From assembly GCA_934120715.1 (NCBI GenBank), contig CAKOUW010000002.1, positions 78,564-142,563 of the forward strand: a DNA stretch of 64,000 bases, written 5' to 3'. This stretch comes from an uncultured Bacilli bacterium (GTDB lineage Bacteria > Bacillota_I > Bacilli_A > RF39 > UBA660). Made by a program: the position numbers and the translations under genes. The notes below the pieces were generated by a model that worked only from the letters and a program-made list of their open reading frames with translations, searched no databases and had not been told where the DNA came from. This document shows positions 40,627 through 51,012 of this stretch, in pieces. Every line of letters begins with the position of its first letter. Within the stretch, counting starts at the first letter, position 1.

Positions 40627-41064
40627 ATGGAAATATTAAATAAAAAGGCTTATCATGACTATTTTATTGAAAATATTTATGAAGCAGGAATAGTTTTGAT
40701 GGGCACAGAAATTAAATCAATTAGAAAAGGTAATTGCAATATTAAAGATTGCTATGGAATAATTAAAAATCATGAAGTATATTTACTTAATATGTATATT
40801 GGTCAATATAAAGAAGGAAATATATTTAATCATGATGAGACTAGAAATAGAAAACTGCTTTTACATAAAAAAGAGATAAAGAAGTTAGAACAAGAAATAG
40901 AGTTGAAAGGAAATACGTTGATACCTATAAGACTTTATTTAAAGAATAATCGTGTTAAAGTTTCTTTAGCTGTTTGCAAGGGAAAAAAGAATTATGATAA
41001 GAGGGAATCTATAAAAGAAAGAGACATCAGGAGAGACGTTTTAAAGAATTTAAAAAAGTACTAG
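40627..41064 (+). CDS. smpB: SsrA-binding protein
   Basis: SmpB family sequence ([13 protein letters not shown]). Confidence 0.93.
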
Positions 41065-41786
41065 TTTTGGCTAGTACTTTTATATTTTTGTTCAAATAAT
41101 TCATATAATTTATCACATTTGTCTTTGTCCATATCATTTTTATCTTCATATGGATATGGTATATTTAGGGCTATGTATTTTTCTCTGCCTAATCTGTGAA
41201 ATGGTAGAAAGTCTACTCTTTTTACATTTTTAATTTTGTTTAAATAATTGACTAGACTATCTATATATTCTTCAGTATCTGTTATTCCAGGTATTATTAC
41301 CTGTCTTATCCATACATCTTTATTTTCTTTGTTGATAGCCTTTATAAAGTTATCGATTTCTTTCATTTCAAGTCCAGTAATTTCTTGATATTCTTTTGGT
41401 CTTGTATGTTTGATATCTAATATTACTAAATTAATATATTTAAGAAGTTCTTCATAATTACCATTGCCAACTCCAGCAGTATCTATTGCTATATGGATAT
41501 TTTCTTTTTTTAATAGTTTCGATGTTTCTACTATGAATTTATCATGAAGAAGTGGTTCTCCTCCAGAAAAAGTAACACCACCATTTTTATTAAAATATGG
41601 TTTAGATCTAATTACTTTTTTAACTACTTCTTCTGGGGTATAATTTCTTTCTTTTATAGTCCACATTTCTGGATTATGACAGTACTTACATCTTAATTTA
41701 CATCCGTTAAAAAATACAACAGTTCTTATACCGGGGCCATCTACCAAACCAAATGTTTCTATTGAATCAATACTTGCTTTAACCAT
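41061..41786 (-). CDS. pflA: pyruvate formate-lyase activating enzyme (radical SAM)
   Basis: [12 protein letters not shown] radical-SAM cluster motif. Confidence 0.93.
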
Positions 41787-41787
41787 A

Positions 41788-44031
41788 TTATATTGTCTCG
41801 TGGAATGTTCTGGAAATTACTTCTTCTTGTTGTTTTCTAGTAAGTCTATTGAAATGCACTGAATATCCAGATACTCTTATTGTTAATAATGGGTATTTAT
41901 CAGGATTTTTCATAGCATCTATCAAAGTTTCTCTATTTAGTACGTTTACATTTAAGTGGTGTGCACCTTGTAAGAAATAGCCATCCATTAGGCTTACTAG
42001 ATTTTCTTTTTGTTCTTCCTTTGTTTTCCCTAGAGCATTTGGTACTATTGAGAATGTATTTGAGATACCATCCTTACAGCAGTTTTTGTATGGTAGTTTT
42101 GCGACAGAGTTTAGGGAAGCAATGGCTCCACTATGATCTCTTCCATGCATTGGATTAGCGCCTGGAGCAAATGGAACACCTTTTTTTCTGCCATCTGGTG
42201 TTGCTCCTGTTTTAGAACCATATACTACATTTGATGTAATTGTTAAAACAGACATAGTCGGTTCAGCTTTTCTATATGGTTCATGTTTTTTAAGTTCTTT
42301 AAACATCTTTTCAAGAATTTCTATTGCTATATTATCAGCTCTATCATCATCATTTCCATATTGTGGATAATCGCCTTCAATTTCAAAATCAACAGTTATT
42401 CCTTCTTCATCTCTAATTGGTTTAACTTTGGCATATTTTATTGCGGATAGAGAGTCAACTGCTACTGATAATCCGGCAACACCATATGCCATATAACGAT
42501 GTACTAAAGTGTCATGTAATGCCATTTGCCCAGCTTCATAAGCATATTTATCATGCATGTAGTGAATTATATTCATGGCATTAGCGTATATGTCAGCTAC
42601 TTTTTCTAGGGCTTTCCAATATGCTTTTTTAACTTTTTGATAATTTAGAACTTCATCATTCATAATATCAAAGCCATCTAATACTTTTTCTCTTTTTATT
42701 TCGTCAATACCACCATTAATTGAGTATAGTAATGTTTTTGCTAAGTTACAGCGAGCACCGAAGAATTGCATGTCTTTACCAAGTCTCATGGCTGATACGC
42801 AGCAAGCAATAGCATAATCATCACCATATATTGGTCTCATTAAATCATCATTTTCATATTGTATAGCATCTGTTTGAATTGACATTTTAGCACAATATTT
42901 TTTGAAATTATCAGTTAAATTTCTGCTCCATAACACTGTCATGTTTGGTTCTGGGGCTGGGTCAAGATTTGTTAATGTATGTAAGATACGGTAAGAACTT
43001 TTAGTGACCATATGTCTTTTATCTTTACTAACACCTGCAATACTACAAGTTACCCAAGTTGGATCTCCAGAGAATAACTCATCATATTCTGGAGTACGTA
43101 GTTGTCTTGCTAAACGTAGTTTTATGATAAATTGATCTATTAATTCTTGAGCTTCTTTTTCAGTGATTGTTTCTTCCTCTAAATCACGATTTATGTATAT
43201 ATCGAAGAAAGCATCTACACGTCCAAGACTCATAGCAGCACCATTATTTTCTTTTATTGCAGCAAGGTAACCAAAGTATGTCCATTGAATGGCTTCTTTA
43301 GCATTATTTGCTGGTGTTGATATATCGATACCATACGTCATTGCCATATCTTTTATACTGTCTAGGGCCCTTATTTGCATTGATACTTCTTCTCTTAGCT
43401 GAATTAATTCATTTGTCATTGGACCGATCAATTTGTTTAAGTCATTTATTTTTTGTTCTTTTAGATAATCAATTCCATATAGAGCAATTCGTCTATAATC
43501 TCCAATTATTCTACCTCTTCCATATGCATCTGGTAACCCTGTAAGTAACCCTACATGTCTAGCTTTTCTGATTTCTGATGTATAGGCATCAAAAACACCT
43601 TGATTATGAGTTTTTCTAAACTCATTAAAATATTTATCTACAGTTGGATTTAGCTTATATCCATATGCATCTAGTTCTTGATAAACCATTCTGATACCGC
43701 CATATGGATTTACAATCCTTTTAAGCGGTTTATCTGTTTGAAGTCCTACTATTACATTGTCTTCTTTACAAATATATCCTTTATCGAATGCGTTGATTCC
43801 TGACATGTGATCTATATCAATATCTAGTACATGTTTTTTTAATTCTTCCTTTAGTAAATCTTTGCATTTTGACCAAATACTAATTGTTTTTTTGGTAGGC
43901 TTTTCTAGGAAGGCTTCATCTCCGTCATATTGTGAATAATTCTTATTAATAAAATCTTGTACATTAACAGAACTTATCCACTTTCCTTGTTTAAATTTTC
44001 TCCATTGTTTCATTATCTTCACCATCCTCAT
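41788..44031 (-). CDS. pflB: formate C-acetyltransferase (pyruvate formate-lyase)
   Basis: Glycyl-radical motif RVSGYSVHF and catalytic CC. The true start is probably the Met at 44013 (RBS ggatggtga). Confidence 0.95.
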
Positions 44032-44152
44032 TATGTATTATAACACAGTCATTTTTTTTTTATTTATTCTTTTCTTTATTGTTAATAAATTTTTTATTTA
44101 CTTTACATTTTACTAGTAAAATAATAAAAAGTATGATATAATCTAGCTACAT

Positions 44153-44531
44153 GGGGCTGATTAGGTTTCGACGGGAATATTAGAGCGCAGATGGCAAGTC
44201 GATTGCTCACGTAATGAGCACAAAAAAATAAACGCAAATAAAGTTAAAAACGCAGTAGCTAATTTGTTTGGTGGAAACCAAGCAGTTGCTTTTGCCTAAT
44301 AATATAAGGCCTGCACTTTTTTCAATTTTTATCTAGGAAATTGGAAGAGGTTCATTTTTACTAGATTATAGTTATCTTTTGTCTTGAAGATAAACTGAAC
44401 TTAATAGACTAGTATATTGTTTTGGTCGTTAACTACTTGAATGATATATGAAATTAATTAGTTAACTAAACTTGTAGAGGTTTGCGTAGCTGTATTTTCG
44501 GACAGGAGTTCGATTCTCCTCAGCTCCACCA
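44153..44531 (+). ncRNA. ssrA: tmRNA (ssrA)
   Basis: The 5' end ggggctgattaggtttcgacggg and 3' end ggacaggagttcgattctcctcagctccacca (T-arm plus CCA) are present. An internal tag ORF gca aat aaa gtt ... gct ttt gcc taa taa encodes ANKVKNAVANLFGGNQAVAFA*. An extended -10 tgatataat lies at 44134-44142. Confidence 0.85.
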
Positions 44532-44621
44532 TTGACGAATCTGTTCGAACTATTCGAACTTAATTATATACTTCAATCTGAAATATGATTGATTTTTATT
44601 TTACAAAAAATCCCCATCGGT

Positions 44622-44669
44622 AATTTTGATATTTTGTCAAAATACCTAGGGGGTTAAAGATTTTTACAT
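44622..44669 (+). repeat. copy A of a ~45-bp repeated palindrome-containing element (TTTTGA-N7-TCAAAATACCTAGG...)
   Basis: Directly visible, and repeated at 45615-45659 at ~85% identity. It lies ~50 nt upstream of the NDT-like gene. Confidence 0.6.
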
Positions 44670-44713
44670 AAACAAAATTTTGTAGTACAATAGAGACAAT
44701 TAACAAAGGGGGA

Positions 44714-45265
44714 ATAATTATAAGAACATATAATGGTGATAACTATAAAAATGTTGCAATACTAGGTTCATTTGGTAAACATTATGATTTAATTGTTGAT
44801 GTATCAAAAAAGTTTATAGAAAGTGGATTTAATGTGTTAGTCCCCAAAATATCAGGAATTAAAGATAAAAATAGTAGTTTTTTAATTTTAATTGGCGATA
44901 ACTCTAATAATCCTAATCAATTAGAATTAGATTATCTTAATAAATGTTTAGAAGCTGATTTGGTATATGTTTGTGACAAGGATGGTTATATTGGTACAAC
45001 GGTAGCATTTGAACTTGGCGTGTTAACTAGCTATGGTCAAGAAATCTATTTTTTAGAAAAGCCCAATGATGATTTATTTACCAGCATGATTCATCTTCAA
45101 GAAAGCACAATATGTAAACCAGAAGATTTAATTAATAAAATTAATTTACATAACGAGATTTGGAGTAGTAGAGAATGGTTTGATAAAGATGAGCGAGATG
45201 ATGAAGTGCCTTTTGCACTTACCAAAAAAAGAAATACTACTATTTATCCAAAAGTAATAAATTAA
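44714..45265 (+). CDS. nucleoside 2-deoxyribosyltransferase-like (NDT/SLOG-fold) protein; start codon unresolved
   Basis: DKDGYIGTTVAFELGVL matches the NDT-family D-x-GT-x-FE-x-G active-site motif, and VAILGSFGKHYD is Rossmann-like. The frame is open from 44672, but the first canonical start is GTG 44834. Only ATA/ATT codons follow the RBS aaaggggga. Confidence 0.45.
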   Translation: MIIRTYNGDNYKNVAILGSFGKHYDLIVDVSKKFIESGFNVLVPKISGIKDKNSSFLILIGDNSNNPNQLELDYLNKCLEADLVYVCDKDGYIGTTVAFELGVLTSYGQEIYFLEKPNDDLFTSMIHLQESTICKPEDLINKINLHNEIWSSREWFDKDERDDEVPFALTKKRNTTIYPKVIN

Positions 45266-45614
45266 TAAGTATAGTTGTAGATTACTACGACACTCGCACC
45301 AGATTGATTGATACTCGAACTTTTAATTTGAGGATAATAAATATTAACTATAAATACCGTCTAGTTTTTTAATTATTTAAGAAAGTAAAGTAATTAATTA
45401 TACGATGATTTTGATTTACAAAATATAGAAAATAGTGTATCGAAAGAAGAAAAGTAAAATAAAAAAACGGTAGCGACTATCGGAATTTAAGCCTATGGAG
45501 AATGATACTCTATCTATGAAGTAGGAATGTTGATCGGCGACGACCAATGCGAATAAAAATTTAAAATTATTTTAATTTTTATTCTTTTGTTATGCAATAA
45601 AAAGCCTCAATGAT

Positions 45615-45659
45615 AATTTTGATGATTATGTCAAAATACCTAGGAGAGTTAAATGTTAT
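45615..45659 (+). repeat. copy B of the repeated element
   Basis: aattttgatgattatgtcaaaatacctaggagagttaaatg, ~80 nt upstream of the HD-gene ATG. Confidence 0.6.
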
Positions 45660-45740
45660 AGCAAAAAGAGAACAAAGAAAAAATAGTATAATTATTTTGG
45701 TGATTGTATGTATTTATATGATAAATTATTAGGCAATAAA

Positions 45741-46374
45741 ATGTTTTTAGACACTGTAAAAAAAAATAGAAAATATTAAGTTTATAACAGACGGTAAATG
45801 GGATTGGGATCATGGACTAGGGCATTACAAACGTGTAGCTGAATATGTAAAAACAATTTTATTACAATTAGGAGCTAACGAAAGAACAGTTGATTTAGGA
45901 ATGACCGCTACGCTTTTGCATGATATTGGTTTATCAAAAGGAGATAAAATCGATCATGCTGTAGAAAGTAGTAAAATATTTATTAATTTTATTGATAAAA
46001 GTGATATTACACATTATGAAGAAGATACTTTAAGGCAGGCTATTCTTGATCACTCTAAAGGAAATAATATTCAATCTTTAATAGGATTGAGTTTGGTCCT
46101 AGCCGACAAATTAGATGTAACCTATCATAGAACCAAAAATTCTAGTATTCAAGATAAAATGAATAAGGAAATTCAAAAGATTCAAAGCGTTGATATAAGT
46201 ATTACTGATAAAAATCTTATAGTACAATATACTACTGATGATAATTTTGATATTAATATTTTAAAAGATTGGCCAAAAGCAATTACTGTTCCATATAGAG
46301 CGTCAAAATATTTAAAGAAAAATTATAGATTTATAGTTAATAATATGCAAATTGATATTTTAAACTATTTGTAA
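45741..46374 (+). pseudogene. HD-domain phosphohydrolase interrupted by a frameshift at an A9 homopolymer (45758-45766)
   Basis: ATG 45741 reads MFLDTVKKN and then hits a stop. The +1 frame continues open as ...KWDWDHGLGHYKRVAEY...TATLLHDIG (H...HD motif) to 46374. With 8 As it would be a single ~210-aa HD protein. Confidence 0.55.
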
Positions 46375-46396
46375 TATAAAGTAGGATGATGATAAT

Positions 46397-47167
46397 TTGA
46401 AAAAAAGAATAGCATTACTAGCCGATATTCATGGTAATTTAGAAGCGTTAGAGTCAATATTGGAAAATATAAAAAAACAGGATATAGATGAAATAATATG
46501 TTTAGGAGATTCAATTGGTATTGGCCCTAATTCAAAGGAATGTATAGATTTATTAATCGATAATAATGTTAAATCCGTTTTAGGTAATTATGAAATATAT
46601 TTATTAAAAGGGACAAATTTCGACTCTTCTATTGTGGGAGAGGAAAAAGAACATTATAAATGGGTTAAAGATTCATTAACTGATAGAGAAATTACTTATA
46701 TAGAAAAGTGCCCGTTTTATTATCAAATAAATATAGAATATGAACATTTAAAATTTAGTAAAAAATATATTTTCTGTCACTATTTGATTAATAGTGAAAA
46801 TAGTATTTATCCCTTTGAAAAGAATCATCTAAAAAGAGACATTAATTTGTGGAAGAAGTATAATAATGATAATATTACTTATTTTATAGGTCATCTTCAT
46901 GAATCTTTTAATGTTAATGAGGTAGATGGTATATCTGGTGATTTTATAGAAGATGATGGAGCCCTAACTAATATTGAAGTTGTTGATAGTGCTGGATGTA
47001 CAAAAGACGAATACACTTCTTACATGATTTTAGAGATTTCAAAGAATATAAGTTATTATAGGAAAAAAATTAAATATGATAGAGGAAAGTTTGTTAATAA
47101 AGTATTGAATATTGAATTTCTGGATAAGCAAAATATACTTAAATATTTTTATGGCATAGAAAAATAA
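46397..47167 (+). CDS. calcineurin-like metallophosphoesterase
   Basis: LADIHGN...CLGDSIG...GNYE...GHLHE motifs. A TTG start follows RBS aagtagga. Confidence 0.75.
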   Translation: MKKRIALLADIHGNLEALESILENIKKQDIDEIICLGDSIGIGPNSKECIDLLIDNNVKSVLGNYEIYLLKGTNFDSSIVGEEKEHYKWVKDSLTDREITYIEKCPFYYQINIEYEHLKFSKKYIFCHYLINSENSIYPFEKNHLKRDINLWKKYNNDNITYFIGHLHESFNVNEVDGISGDFIEDDGALTNIEVVDSAGCTKDEYTSYMILEISKNISYYRKKIKYDRGKFVNKVLNIEFLDKQNILKYFYGIEK

Positions 47168-47330
47168 AAGAATTAAGAAGATAATAAAGCAATGATATTA
47201 ATTTATGTATAATTGCAAAGCTATATAATTCATTTTCTATTGATTGAAATATTATTGTTATCATGGTATAATTTCCGTATAAAGTATGATATGTTAATAG
47301 AATCTATTACAGTAGGGAGAAATTATATTT

Positions 47331-49199
47331 ATGATTGAAAGTTTGGGTTTTCCTATAATTGGTTTGCTTTTTTTAATTTTAGTATCAATCATTTTCTTGA
47401 AGAGAAAGAGGTATAAAACATTTGAAAATGATATTTTTACTGTTTTACTGTTTTTTACTTTGATTATGTCAGTACTTGGAATAGTATGTACTTTAACGAT
47501 GGCTAATCGAGAAAATATTCCAATTTTTAATGAGGTGTTATGTAGAATATATGTGTTTGGGATTATTGCGTGGATGTCATTGATATTAGCGTATTCGTGG
47601 AGTTTAGGGCGTAATTTGAAGTATGAAAAGCTTTCTCAAATATTTAAGGAACGTTATATAAGAGCGTTAGTTATTTTTACTATAGTTACTTATATTGTAT
47701 CTTTATTCTATGATTTAACTTTTACATCAGCATATAATGATTCGGTATATATTATTGGAGGAGAGGGCCAATTTGCTATATATAGCTTTGTTGTAATAAT
47801 GGTTGTTAGTACTTTGTATATATTATTGGTAAAGAAGAAAAATCTTCCTTTAACAAGACGATTACCATTATTTTTCTTTGTATTCTATTTATTATTAGTT
47901 TCTATTCTTCAAATAACTGTTTATAATTTTAATGATGTAACTTATCTTTATTGTTTGTGTGTTATTGCTATATACTTTTCTATAGAAAATCCTGATGTTC
48001 AATTAATAGAACGACTTAAAGAAACAAATAAAAATACGGAGTTAGCTCTTAAGAATAGGACTGATTTTTTATTAGAAATGTCTAATGAAATAAGGACACC
48101 TCTTAATTCAATTGTTGGATTCAGTCAATCAATTATAAATGAGAAAAATATTTCTGAAGAATCTTTTAAAAATGATATTGAATATATTAATGATTCTTCA
48201 AAAGGACTATTAAATACTATAAATAATATTCGAGAATTTTCAACTATGGATGCTATAGATAATGTTGTCAATGTGGAACCATTTTCAATTAGTGATATTG
48301 TTACTGATATAGAACAATATGTAAAATCAAAATTGTATAAAGATGTTCAATTTAATGTTGATATTGATAAAGGACTTCCTAAAGTTTTGATTGGTGATAG
48401 GGGAAAAATTTTAAAGATTTTAATAGGATTAATAGGTAATAGTATAAGGTTTACGCAATCAGGTGAAATTGAATTAAAAATTGCTGGTATTAGTAAACAA
48501 GATCATATTGATATGCATTTTACGGTTAATGATACTGGTGTTGGAATGAGAAAAAATGAGCTTGAATCATTGACTAATTATCTTGGTAAGCATGATGTTG
48601 AGAATGAAATATCTAATAATAGTGTTGGTATTGGACTACTTGTTATAAAGAACTTGGTTAAACTTTTAGATGGTGAGATAACTTTTACTAGTAACTATGG
48701 AATTGGTTCTACTTTTGATGTAATAATAAAATGTAGGATTTGTGAAGATAACAAGATTATAGAAGAAGTTTTAACTAAGAAGGATAATGTTAATTATATT
48801 GATTGCTCAAAATATAGTGTTTTACTAATAGATAATGGCGATATATCTTCACGAGCAAATTATAATCTACTTAAAAAATTTAAATTTAATATTGATACTT
48901 GTAAAAGTGGATTAGAAAGTATTGAGAAAATTAAATCAGGTTCTCATTATGATTTATTAATAATAGGTAATAATAGTTTTGAACTATCTGCTGTTGAAAC
49001 AATTGAAAAGATTAAGAAGTTAAACAATTATAAAATACCTAAAGTTTTAGTTGAAATATCAAATGATATTAAATATCAAAATAAATATTTAGATGATGGA
49101 TTTACTGATTTTTTATTAAATCCAATAGATGAATTAGAACTTATAAAGTTAATAAATAAATATTTTGATGATATTGTGGGTGGTGACAATAATGTTTAA
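47331..49199 (+). CDS. membrane sensor histidine-kinase-like / pseudo-receiver hybrid with H-box His replaced by Asn
   Basis: 6-7 N-terminal TMs. The HisKA-like box LLEMSNEIRTPLNSIVGF has Asn (codon 48084-48086) where the consensus S-H-E-L-RTPL has His. HATPase_c N/G1/G2 boxes are intact. The C-terminal REC-like domain lacks the phospho-Asp (IIGNN). Confidence 0.7.
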   Translation: MIESLGFPIIGLLFLILVSIIFLKRKRYKTFENDIFTVLLFFTLIMSVLGIVCTLTMANRENIPIFNEVLCRIYVFGIIAWMSLILAYSWSLGRNLKYEKLSQIFKERYIRALVIFTIVTYIVSLFYDLTFTSAYNDSVYIIGGEGQFAIYSFVVIMVVSTLYILLVKKKNLPLTRRLPLFFFVFYLLLVSILQITVYNFNDVTYLYCLCVIAIYFSIENPDVQLIERLKETNKNTELALKNRTDFLLEMSNEIRTPLNSIVGFSQSIINEKNISEESFKNDIEYINDSSKGLLNTINNIREFSTMDAIDNVVNVEPFSISDIVTDIEQYVKSKLYKDVQFNVDIDKGLPKVLIGDRGKILKILIGLIGNSIRFTQSGEIELKIAGISKQDHIDMHFTVNDTGVGMRKNELESLTNYLGKHDVENEISNNSVGIGLLVIKNLVKLLDGEITFTSNYGIGSTFDVIIKCRICEDNKIIEEVLTKKDNVNYIDCSKYSVLLIDNGDISSRANYNLLKKFKFNIDTCKSGLESIEKIKSGSHYDLLIIGNNSFELSAVETIEKIKKLNNYKIPKVLVEISNDIKYQNKYLDDGFTDFLLNPIDELELIKLINKYFDDIVGGDNNV

Positions 49200-51012
49200 T
49201 ACAATTATATTTTCAATAAGTAATTTATTGCTGGCAATATTGTTGTTAATCGTTTATATTTTTAAAGTAAAAGAAAAAAATATTAATAATATATTATATA
49301 ATTCATTATTAATTTGCTTGATTGTAATTTTGGTAACTGAAATTGTGTCAGTATATACAATTTATAATAATCAATTATTTCCATTATTGAATGAAGTGAT
49401 ATGTAGAATACGTGGTGTAGGTATAATTATATGGGCTATGTTAATATCCTTATATTTAATATCTTTAAGTACTAATCATAATTATGAAGAATTTAAAAAA
49501 GTGTTACATAAAAATTATTATATATTACCTATATATTTGTTAATTATAGTCTGTTTTTTCTTTTTTAAATATGACTATGTTATATTGAATGATACTGCAT
49601 ATTTAAAGGGATCTGCTAGTATATATATATTTATGTGTATTATTTTAATATCACTGTTCTGTATAATATTTATTCCAGATAGTATTTTTAGTAAGTACAG
49701 TAAAAAAATGATAGCTTTGTTTTTATTATTAGAATTAATAGTAATTTTAATGTTATCTTATACTCTTCCATATGTATATTTTGCTACAACTGTTTTAACA
49801 TTAAATACTTATATCTTGTATTTTGTAACTGAAAATCCTGATTTATATGCAATAAAACAGCTAGAAAAAGCAAATGATATTATAGAAAATCTTAATACTA
49901 GTAAGATGGACTTTTTTAATAACATTACTAATGAAATAAGATCTTCAGTTCAATCAATAGTAAATTTAAGTGATATTTTGTTAGAGAGTCCTTATGATAG
50001 AGAAAAGATTTTACCAGATGTAAATAGTATATTTTATACAGGAAATAATTTAAATGCAATTATTACGAATGTTTTAGATATATCGAAAATTGATTATGAT
50101 TTGGATTGTTTAAATGAAGAAGAATATGATTTAAAAAGTTTAATTTTAGATTTGATGGTTATGTTCGAAGAAATGAATAATAAAAATATTAATTTGAATA
50201 TTATTTGTGATGAAAATGTACCTAGAAGATATATTGGTGATAGAAATAAAATTTATAAAATTTTATTAAATTTATTGGATAATTCAATTAAATATACTTA
50301 TACTGGGAGAGTTTCATTAAAGATAGAATGCTTAGTAAAAGATAAGAATTGTTTATTAAAATTTTGTGTATCTGATACTGGTGTTGGTTTAAAAGAAAAT
50401 GAATATAATAAAGTTTTAAATGAATTGTCTGATTTAGATAAACATACGTATAATGGTAAAGAATATGTTGGACCTGGTCTTATTATTGTAAAAAAGTTTG
50501 TTGATATTATGAATGGAAAAATTACTTTTACAAGTGACTATGGTGCTGGGACAAAATTTTATGTGGAATTGCCACAAAAAATTGTTGATAATACTGTTAT
50601 TGGAACTATAAATATGGAAAATGTGATAGATTATAAAAATTATTCTTCTTTGAAAGTATTAATAGTTGATAATGGCAATTTGGATTTAAAGTTAATGAAA
50701 ACATTTTTAAATCCTTATAAGTTTAGCGTTGATACTTCGTTAAGTGTTAAAGATTTCATTTATAAGATAAAACAAGGTAATAGATATGCTCTTATATTTA
50801 TTGATCAAATGATGTTAAAAGAGGATGATATAGAATTAATAGAAGTATTGGAAAAATTGTCTGATATTTTTGTAATTCCTCCAATAATAGTTTTAACATC
50901 TGATTATTTTATGTTGCAGCATGATAAGAAAAAATTTATATGTGATTCTTTGATGAAGCCAATTAATAATATTAAATTGGATGAAATTATAACTAAGTAT
51001 CTTGATAAATAA
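49192..51012 (+). CDS. paralogous membrane histidine-kinase-like / receiver hybrid, also with H-box His replaced by Asn
   Basis: Same architecture. Its H-box NNITNEIRSSVQSI has Asn at 49930-49932. HATPase_c is intact, and the C-terminal REC retains the conserved D (LIFIDQMM), T/S and KP. ATG 49192 follows ggtggtga and overlaps the upstream stop. Confidence 0.7.
   Translation: MFNTIIFSISNLLLAILLLIVYIFKVKEKNINNILYNSLLICLIVILVTEIVSVYTIYNNQLFPLLNEVICRIRGVGIIIWAMLISLYLISLSTNHNYEEFKKVLHKNYYILPIYLLIIVCFFFFKYDYVILNDTAYLKGSASIYIFMCIILISLFCIIFIPDSIFSKYSKKMIALFLLLELIVILMLSYTLPYVYFATTVLTLNTYILYFVTENPDLYAIKQLEKANDIIENLNTSKMDFFNNITNEIRSSVQSIVNLSDILLESPYDREKILPDVNSIFYTGNNLNAIITNVLDISKIDYDLDCLNEEEYDLKSLILDLMVMFEEMNNKNINLNIICDENVPRRYIGDRNKIYKILLNLLDNSIKYTYTGRVSLKIECLVKDKNCLLKFCVSDTGVGLKENEYNKVLNELSDLDKHTYNGKEYVGPGLIIVKKFVDIMNGKITFTSDYGAGTKFYVELPQKIVDNTVIGTINMENVIDYKNYSSLKVLIVDNGNLDLKLMKTFLNPYKFSVDTSLSVKDFIYKIKQGNRYALIFIDQMMLKEDDIELIEVLEKLSDIFVIPPIIVLTSDYFMLQHDKKKFICDSLMKPINNIKLDEIITKYLDK

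Follow-up and report, generated by a model that had tools for sequence, protein, structure and literature searches.

The locus reported here has its closest described counterparts among cis-mobilizable elements (CIMEs; defined in PMC5704250) and among the genomic islands of Dehalococcoides, where tandem islands occupy ssrA, the gene for transfer-messenger RNA (tmRNA), and 15 of them lack integration modules (PMC3146451). The absence of an integrase is what defines a CIME, as opposed to an island that carries its own. Our locus lies immediately 3′ of ssrA in a 64,000-nucleotide (nt) stretch of contig CAKOUW010000002.1 from an uncultured Bacilli bacterium, referred to below as the window, which we compared with loci and contigs designated L001–L068. 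Three plus-strand open reading frames (ORFs) follow the tmRNA gene, as a first-pass annotation of the window had noted. That annotation assigned them to a nucleoside 2′-deoxyribosyltransferase (NDT)-like protein (here, gene 1), an HD phosphohydrolase, and a calcineurin-like metallophosphoesterase, and proposed that they act together on nucleotides, perhaps against phage.

We put the probability at about 0.6 that this locus is instead a mosaic, composed of a mobile gene 1 cassette and a species-specific pair of HD and metallophosphoesterase genes and marked by decay. In our reconstruction, an integrase-less cassette of ∼0.8 kilobases (kb), with its own hairpin, palindromic operator-like element, promoter, and single gene, would have been inserted at the CCA end of ssrA; it would end in ...GCACCA and be followed by a copy of an ssrA 3′ flank. 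The HD gene would have picked up a palindrome of the gene 1 type in front of a two-gene operon. Relaxed selection would be visible in the ATA start codon of gene 1, the frameshifted HD gene of this strain, and a metallophosphoesterase without its motif III histidine. The cassette may be a decayed or cis-mobilizable integrative element that is swapped among gut Bacilli, with the 3′ ends of transfer RNA (tRNA) and tmRNA genes as its landing sites; we infer the recombinase and the mechanism by which it moves. Once excised, it would have the circular junction ...GCACCA/TTGACGAATCT, and the matching empty site would read tmRNA-CCA/GATTGAT... (slashes mark the point of joining).

The cassette has a defined insertion point and, in L022 and L067, clear flanking repeats; it differs between strains and has recently passed between genera. 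L022, a metagenome-assembled genome (MAG) of a different genus, has nucleotide identities to the window of 69% in rnr, 71% in smpB, and 67% in tmRNA, and its tmRNA tag peptide differs, yet positions 44701–45401 match it at 96%, with 2 differences in 543 bases of gene 1 (99.6% identity). Near-identity of gene 1 despite an rnr identity of 69% indicates recent horizontal transfer. In a gut taxon represented by L001–L006, the only shared segment is 44505–45379, at 90% identity. The first 27 nt of this match reflect generic T-arm and acceptor similarity, and true homology starts at the first base 3′ of the CCA of a tRNA-Arg(ACG); the hairpin GTTCGAACTATTCGAAC, identical in L004, there follows that tRNA. 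Homology with the window ends at 45379 in L001–L006 and at 45401 in L022.

Within the species to which L022, L067, and L068 belong, at least two arrangements are present 3′ of ssrA. L022 and L067 carry the tmRNA 3′ flank (CACCAGATTGATA.TAAACTCGAACTTTTCGAG) in three copies of 33 base pairs (bp), which bracket the gene 1 segment and a second segment with a 311-amino-acid (aa) gene that has no Pfam match. L068 has a single, clean cassette of the window type, with hairpin, palindrome, promoter, ATA-initiated gene 1, and ...GCACCA end, its ends abutting the tmRNA CCA on one side and the native, terminator-bearing flank on the other. In all three of these contigs, the tmRNA 3′ flank and its repeats have a match in segment 45297–45324 of the window. 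The first-pass annotation had pointed to short ttcgaact repeats as possible attachment-site (att) remnants. These repeats are real, but the two TTCGAACT copies (44544–44560) form the arms of one hairpin directly after the tmRNA, and the third reads CTCGAACT, with one mismatch, and falls within the 28-nt repeat of an ssrA flank. The idea was right in spirit, in that an att-like copy of an ssrA flank does follow gene 1; the island that it delimits is only ∼0.8 kb long and holds gene 1 alone.

Homologs of gene 1 are also found next to other RNA genes. In a Clostridia MAG (L026), a 47-bp repeat made up of the last 10 nt of a tRNA-Ser and its terminator lies on both sides of an 839-bp insert whose homolog is 41% identical, and further homologs lie directly 3′ of a tRNA-Leu (L023) and of a tRNA-Tyr that is the last tRNA of a cluster (L028). 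The expectation that the 3′ end of ssrA acts as an insertion hot spot is borne out at this locus. Likewise, as first reported, no integrase was called among the ORFs of the region; we found no integrase or recombinase gene in the cassette or among neighboring ORFs, and a blastn search of the whole region against phages gave no match. Two additional repeats were considered and rejected: a tRNA T-arm duplicate of the tmRNA end, whose 27-nt 3′ end was found once only, and a third att-like repeat bracketing the HD and metallophosphoesterase genes, as the window has no additional flank repeat farther downstream. In L004 (2372–7294), the stretch immediately upstream of a divergent tRNA-Met/tRNA-Arg pair carries a tyrosine integrase, small ORFs, and a P-type cation ATPase and may be a separate island.

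Gene 1 encodes a full-length protein without an ATG, GTG, or TTG start codon. Its frame is open from 44720, and an ORF lister returned only a 143-aa form initiated at GTG. Position 44720 begins an ATA codon in the window and an ATG codon in relatives of 77%–93% identity, whose protein begins MRTYNGDNYK; ATA is found in all conspecific contigs and in the species of L022. Translation table 11 permits ATA as a start codon, though a weak one. The gene 1 ORF is intact in every copy. The family as a whole, with a ratio of nonsynonymous to synonymous substitution rates (dN/dS) of 0.2–0.4, is under constraint; the ATA lineage is too young to judge.

The protein itself matches neither PF05014 nor PF15891 even at E < 1, has no Pfam match of its own, and no NCBIfam, PADLOC, or Protein Data Bank (PDB) sequence match; a family profile gave only sub-significant matches to PDB sequences. 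There are 27 close homologs, and a profile search of 1.84 billion representative sequences returned 1,046 matches at E ≤ 1e-3. Among close members, 6 of 26 match NDT Pfam models weakly (best 5e-4), and 48 of 127 representatives of the wider family match PF05014 (best 4.5e-8, with some under the 28.8-bit cut-off). An AlphaFold2 model built from a deep alignment, with a predicted local distance difference test (pLDDT) score of 87.1, is nearest to nucleoside 2′-deoxyribosyltransferases, MilB, and Rcl/DNPH1, with which it has a flavodoxin-like alpha/beta fold in common. The motif DKDGYIGTTVAFELG is present, and across 86 diverse stand-alone family members only Pro42 and Glu98 are invariant. Glu98 aligns with the AWELG motif of the NDT 6evs and with the HIEIG motif of the cytidine monophosphate (CMP) N-glycosidase 4jen; the Glu of this ELG/EIG motif is the catalytic residue in both enzymes. 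From its sequence and modeled fold, we regard gene 1 as a divergent member of the NDT superfamily with a putative catalytic-type Glu. The label "NDT-like" therefore holds at the level of fold, family profile, and conserved Glu, and does not hold as a match of gene 1 itself to NDT or SLOG models. With ∼1,000 cluster representatives and an invariant Glu, and often fused to MazG or NUDIX domains, the family is an unannotated yet sizeable branch of the superfamily.

These fusions and the genes that adjoin gene 1 homologs point to nucleotide chemistry. The 127 representatives include 12 fusions to MazG, 3 to MazG-like domains, 2 to NUDIX, 2 to Ppx-GppA, and 1 to the ITPase-like NTPase_I-T, and the fused MazG domains resemble DCTPP1/RS21-C6. 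A NUDIX hydrolase is the next gene in L001–L006, and NUDIX also adjoins the homologs in L029–L031 and L057. Other neighbors are an NPP-type pyrophosphatase (L027), an HD protein (L038), the nucleoside phosphorylase PNP (L036), and Ham1 (L024); the HD protein of L038 was tried as a relative of the window HD and proved unrelated. The recurrence of MazG- and NUDIX-type partners suggests that the family comprises nucleoside-monophosphate N-glycosidases. By analogy with DNPH1/Rcl and MilB, we infer that gene 1 would cleave the N-glycosidic bond of a nucleoside 5′-monophosphate. A partner enzyme, either a nucleotide pyrophosphatase or a phosphohydrolase, would provide its substrate, and its role would lie in nucleotide sanitation or salvage. 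A literature search for links between MazG and deoxyribosyltransferase or DNPH1, or between NrtR and deoxyribosyltransferase, found nothing relevant.

More distant homologs occur in several distinct settings. In L057 (2876–7821; also in L058–L060), an APH-type kinase, a CYTH protein, NUDIX, the NDT-like gene, an Ldh_2-type dehydrogenase, and a GFO/IDH/MocA oxidoreductase form a conserved operon that looks metabolic rather than defensive. In L051 (938–3520; similarly in L048 and L052), the genes downstream of a distant NDT-like gene encode a 173-aa protein and then a 505-aa protein with a C-terminal TIR domain of the CAP12/Pycsar type, a layout that could be a defense-type context for another branch of the family. 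Actinomycetota carry the NDT-like domain either as a fusion with NrtR-type proteins (NUDIX plus the NrtR winged helix) or in translational coupling with them, which hints at a link to the sensing of nicotinamide adenine dinucleotide (NAD) or ADP-ribose.

The other two genes have the identities first given to them. The HD phosphohydrolase matches PF01966 (E = 4.6e-7; 30.6 bits against a cut-off of 22), although it is frameshifted in this strain, and its metal-binding residues H39, H71-D72, and D133 are invariant in homologs; searches against PDB sequences, with the single sequence and with a profile, gave no match. The metallophosphoesterase matches PF00149 above its cut-off (E = 1.6e-11) as well as PF12850, and retains the motifs DIHGN (DxH) and GDSIGIG (GD). 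Both proteins score far under the cut-offs of NCBIfam equivalog models. Lesions affect all three genes in this genome: the ATA start in gene 1, a run of nine A residues (A9) that shifts the frame of HD, and GNYE at motif III (residues 63–66; 46586–46597) of the metallophosphoesterase. The A9 allele is found in four independent assemblies (the window, L008, L010, and L011), and an A8 allele that encodes an intact 221-aa protein is found in L007 and L009. The A8/A9 difference is linked to a C/T single-nucleotide polymorphism 21 nt downstream, so it represents a lineage polymorphism and not an assembly error. Transcriptional slippage can partly rescue A9 runs. GNYE is confined to this species, in which H65Y is fixed and the metallophosphoesterase ORF is intact, and 104 of 109 homologs read GNHE. 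YfcE-type enzymes function with a residue other than His at this position.

The three genes do not form a unit. HD and metallophosphoesterase each have hundreds of homologs of 60%–87% identity in related gut MAGs (e.g., Clostridium sp. CAG:524). HD homologs of 78%–87% identity and metallophosphoesterase homologs of 74%–76% identity lie in unrelated neighborhoods without ssrA, gene 1, or a trio partner: HD has unrelated genes on either side in L014–L016 and adjoins a Mob_Pre gene in L034, and unrelated genes for 314-aa or 408-aa proteins precede the metallophosphoesterase in L019–L021 and L033. The trio is present only in the conspecific contigs L007 and L008, and was never repeated in the contexts of homologs of HD (L014–L018 and L034), metallophosphoesterase (L019–L021 and L033), or gene 1 (L001–L006 and L022–L064). 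What other taxa have in common with the window is only the ∼0.8 kb with gene 1, and conservation of a three-gene unit next to ssrA is not upheld. HD and metallophosphoesterase are ordinary, lineage-wide genes that are not syntenic and not part of the cassette; widespread singly in the lineage, they are joined here in a species-specific two-gene operon. Of the outcome that the first-pass annotation named as refuting its proposal, half is seen: gene 1 alone does not match the NDT Pfam model, and the other two genes are spread across the lineage but without synteny. L017 (8001–10772), from a species whose HD protein shares 87% identity with that of the window, offers an independent neighborhood of HD and N-glycosidase genes: downstream of HD come an inosine-uridine nucleoside hydrolase, a PF15891 NDT-like protein, and a 189-aa protein.

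The two copies of a ∼45-bp palindromic element that had been reported upstream of gene 1 and HD are genuine. They have the exact 15-mer GTCAAAATACCTAGG in common, and none of 100 shuffled sequences gave two matches. Their centers lie 87 nt before the start of gene 1 and 81 nt before that of HD, and in L001–L006 the palindrome is perfect over 12 + 12 nt (GTATTTTGACAT-TT-ATGTCAAAATAC). The occurrence of one palindrome in front of both genes makes common regulation plausible. Upstream of HD in other species (L014 and L017) the palindrome is absent, which argues that HD here acquired an upstream element of the cassette type. We rejected an intrinsic terminator: copy 1 folds well (z = −3.5), but copy 2 does not (z = −1.3), and there is no proper T-run on the plus strand. 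A regulon-wide role was also rejected, given the absence before HD in L014 and L017 and the lack of any match to a 22-base pattern in JGI metagenomes. An operator-like role is the one we prefer, but it is unproven. Coordinates of the principal features are collected in the table.

Table. Features 3′ of ssrA and related comparison loci (positions refer to the window unless an L-number is given).
Feature	Position	Strand	Remarks
tmRNA gene ssrA	44153–44531	+	ARAGORN; Rfam RF00023, 166.5 bits; CCA end is the left cassette boundary
Gene 1 cassette	44532–45301	+	Begins one base past the tmRNA CCA and runs to ...GCACCA; ∼0.8 kb
Terminator-like hairpin GTTCGAACTATTCGAAC	44543–44559	+	Terminator scan; fold −6.5 kcal/mol
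Palindromic element, copy 1, core AATTTTGAT-N6-TGTCAAAATACCTAGG	44609–44655	+	Fold z −3.5
Promoter-like site TTTACA-17-TACAAT, gene 1	44663–44691	+	10/12 consensus positions; conserved in L004 and L068
Shine-Dalgarno site AAAGGGGG, gene 1	44705–44712	+	Strong; ends 7 nt before the start
Gene 1	44720–45265	+	181-aa NDT superfamily protein (predicted); ATA start
Glu98 codon, gene 1	45011–45013	+	
Att-like copy of an ssrA 3′ flank, CACCAGATTGATTGATACTCGAACTTTT	45297–45324	+	28 nt; unique in the window
Co-transferred 3′ flank with degenerate terminator	45325–45401	+	Similarity to other taxa stops here
Palindromic element, copy 2	45603–45650	+	Upstream of HD
HD-domain phosphohydrolase gene	45708–46374	+	Frameshifted at the A9 run 45758–45766
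Calcineurin-like metallophosphoesterase gene	46397–47167	+	Starts 22 nt after HD
Post-ssrA array of L022	L022 5404–8046		Three copies of the tmRNA 3′ flank
NrtR-linked loci	L029 5998–7119; L030 5656–7150; L031 3383–4622; L065 4989–6128		

The surroundings of the cassette differ in part from the first description. The gene order 5′ of the tmRNA is secG, rnr, a PGA_cap-like gene, smpB, and then pflA and pflB on the minus strand. The genes and order of the proposed secG-rnr-smpB-ssrA synteny are seen, but not as an uninterrupted run: the PGA_cap-like gene intervenes after rnr, and pflA (a radical SAM activase) and pflB (pyruvate formate-lyase), at 41061–44031, separate smpB from ssrA. In L022 and L067, of a related genus, the tmRNA directly follows smpB. 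An Rfam scan of 44000–47400 at E ≤ 5 matched only the tmRNA, leaving the spacer at 45270–45700 without a riboswitch or small RNA. A ∼200-bp part of the spacer (45402–45600), between the cassette and palindrome copy 2, is unique to the species. It has a relatively G+C-rich core (45467–45550) and no Rfam match, significant fold, or ORF; both strands of 45440–45570 folded no better than shuffled sequence (z = 0.1 and 1.2). Beyond the trio, 47331–51012, the stretch with the lowest GC content of the region (0.19–0.26), holds an overlapping tandem pair of hybrid histidine kinases (622 and 615 aa). Both have a multi-pass membrane N terminus, HisKA/HATPase domains, and a receiver domain, and no separate response regulator lies nearby.

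That the three genes form one co-regulated ssrA island, degrading a nucleotide second messenger or depleting nucleotides as an anti-phage effector, is in our view very improbable. The hot-spot location, the horizontal transfer of gene 1, the single palindrome type before gene 1 and HD, and the close spacing of HD and metallophosphoesterase would all suit such an island, and some distant gene 1 family members lie two genes upstream of the CAP12/Pycsar-type TIR protein (L051) or match that model. On the other hand, the trio is confined to this species, each gene has other contexts in relatives, and ∼440 bp with terminator-like sequence part gene 1 from HD. A PADLOC-DB v2 search left gene 1 and the metallophosphoesterase unmatched and gave HD only a weak, generic match to a Cas3 HD model (E = 0.0066), a tblastn search of gene 1 against phages found no homolog, and all three genes are lesioned; the anti-phage interpretation accordingly finds no backing here. 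The same lesions could be taken further, as the mark of three non-functional ORF remnants drifting 3′ of ssrA, with the cassette as the debris of a decayed island. We think this unlikely, even though the ATA start recurs in every contig of this species and in that of L022, the A9 frameshift in four independent assemblies, and the H65Y change throughout the species, and no integrase remains. Remnants of this kind are hard to square with an intact gene 1 ORF in every copy and the low dN/dS of the family, with a permitted, if weak, start codon 7 nt after a strong Shine-Dalgarno site, or with the persistence of the intact A8 allele in the population and the scope for partial rescue of A9 by slippage. 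The intact metallophosphoesterase ORF, together with the tolerance of YfcE-type enzymes for a non-His residue, points the same way.

A different question is what gene 1 acts on. It could belong to NAD/ADP-ribose metabolism, as a glycohydrolase of nicotinamide mononucleotide (NMN) or of nicotinamide riboside, or else as a ligand sensor, and not act on canonical (deoxy)nucleoside monophosphates. An Actinomycetota homolog is fused to an NrtR-type protein in L029 and overlaps such a gene in L030 and L031, the same fusion is found on a Streptomyces plasmid, and the modeled gene 1 fold appears close to that of TIR NADases. We nonetheless hold this to be improbable: only distant homologs (28%–37% identity) show the NrtR link, the commonest fusions of the family are to MazG-type nucleoside triphosphate (NTP) pyrophosphatases resembling DCTPP1, and no NAD salvage genes adjoin gene 1 in the window. 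At a similarly low level of confidence, we speculate that the cassette might represent an undescribed class of miniature single-gene cassettes at the tRNA/tmRNA CCA end, moved in trans by a host or island recombinase and spreading a nucleoside-monophosphate N-glycosidase against non-canonical or phage-derived nucleotides. If so, gut Bacilli would possess a small, portable module for nucleotide sanitation or defense.

The mosaic that we favor has evidence against it as well. At least 48 contigs carry the ATA variant of gene 1 together with an unbroken ORF and a stronger Shine-Dalgarno site, so the variant may be expressed and not in decay. Of 30 JGI metagenome loci, not one shows a tRNA directly 5′ of the gene (many of these contigs are short), which makes tRNA adjacency a feature of only a subset of the family. 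The left and right junctions have just CACCA plus TTGA(T) in common in both the window and L068, the right one being a full copy of an ssrA flank; with so short a core, homologous recombination through conserved tRNA/tmRNA ends could explain the pattern in place of site-specific recombination. Finally, the shared palindrome does link gene 1 with HD in this species. If the mosaic reading is correct, the locus adds no new defense system and illustrates how domain content beside ssrA can suggest a system where only a mosaic exists. It also provides a natural example, in the human gut microbiome, of a sub-kilobase, integrase-less cassette that crosses genera and tRNA/tmRNA 3′ ends.

Compared with characterized enzymes, the third gene most resembles metallophosphoesterases of the ApaH/PrpE/SapH type. 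It matches both the Metallophos and Metallophos_2 models of Pfam, and its best PDB relatives are 3rqz, 3qfm, and diadenosine tetraphosphate (Ap4A) hydrolases; it departs from these enzymes in the replacement of the motif III His by Tyr and in its scores below the NCBIfam equivalog cut-offs. Gene 1 shares with the NDT superfamily (PF05014, the DNPH1/Rcl deoxynucleoside-monophosphate N-glycosidase, and the MilB/BcmB CMP N-glycosidases) an invariant Glu in a G-x5-E-L/I-G motif, and the annotation pipeline PGAP names distant plasmid homologs "nucleoside 2-deoxyribosyltransferase." Unlike the known members, it has an N-terminal motif of its own, GSF(G/R)KH, a conserved VYVCxxDGY strand, and a C-terminal helix with a ∼30-aa tail. 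The GSF(R)KH of gene 1 may resemble the phosphate-binding GSIRGG of Rcl.

The pairing of DCTPP1 (MazG type) with DNPH1 in nucleotide sanitation offers a functional parallel. Members of the gene 1 family are recurrently fused to MazG domains like those of DCTPP1/RS21-C6 and recurrently lie beside NUDIX, NPP, HD, and Ham1 enzymes, contexts that fit a predicted two-step conversion of NTP to nucleoside monophosphate and then to base and sugar phosphate. The phosphohydrolase of the window differs in being an HD protein of another family, ∼440 bp from gene 1 and frameshifted.

Among mobile elements, the cassette differs from CIMEs and from the Dehalococcoides ssrA islands in its very small size (∼0.8 kb, a single gene) and in its repeat, which consists of the last 5–10 nt of the RNA gene plus the downstream flank and not of the T-loop region. 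It also differs in that the same cassette follows two RNA genes, tmRNA and tRNA-Arg, with no cognate integrase identified. Like those elements, however, the cassette occupies the 3′ terminus of ssrA or of a tRNA gene, has no integration or transfer genes, and is polymorphic between strains; in L022 and L067, where repeats of the target 3′ region clearly flank it, it even stands in a tandem array with other segments, separated by the same repeat.

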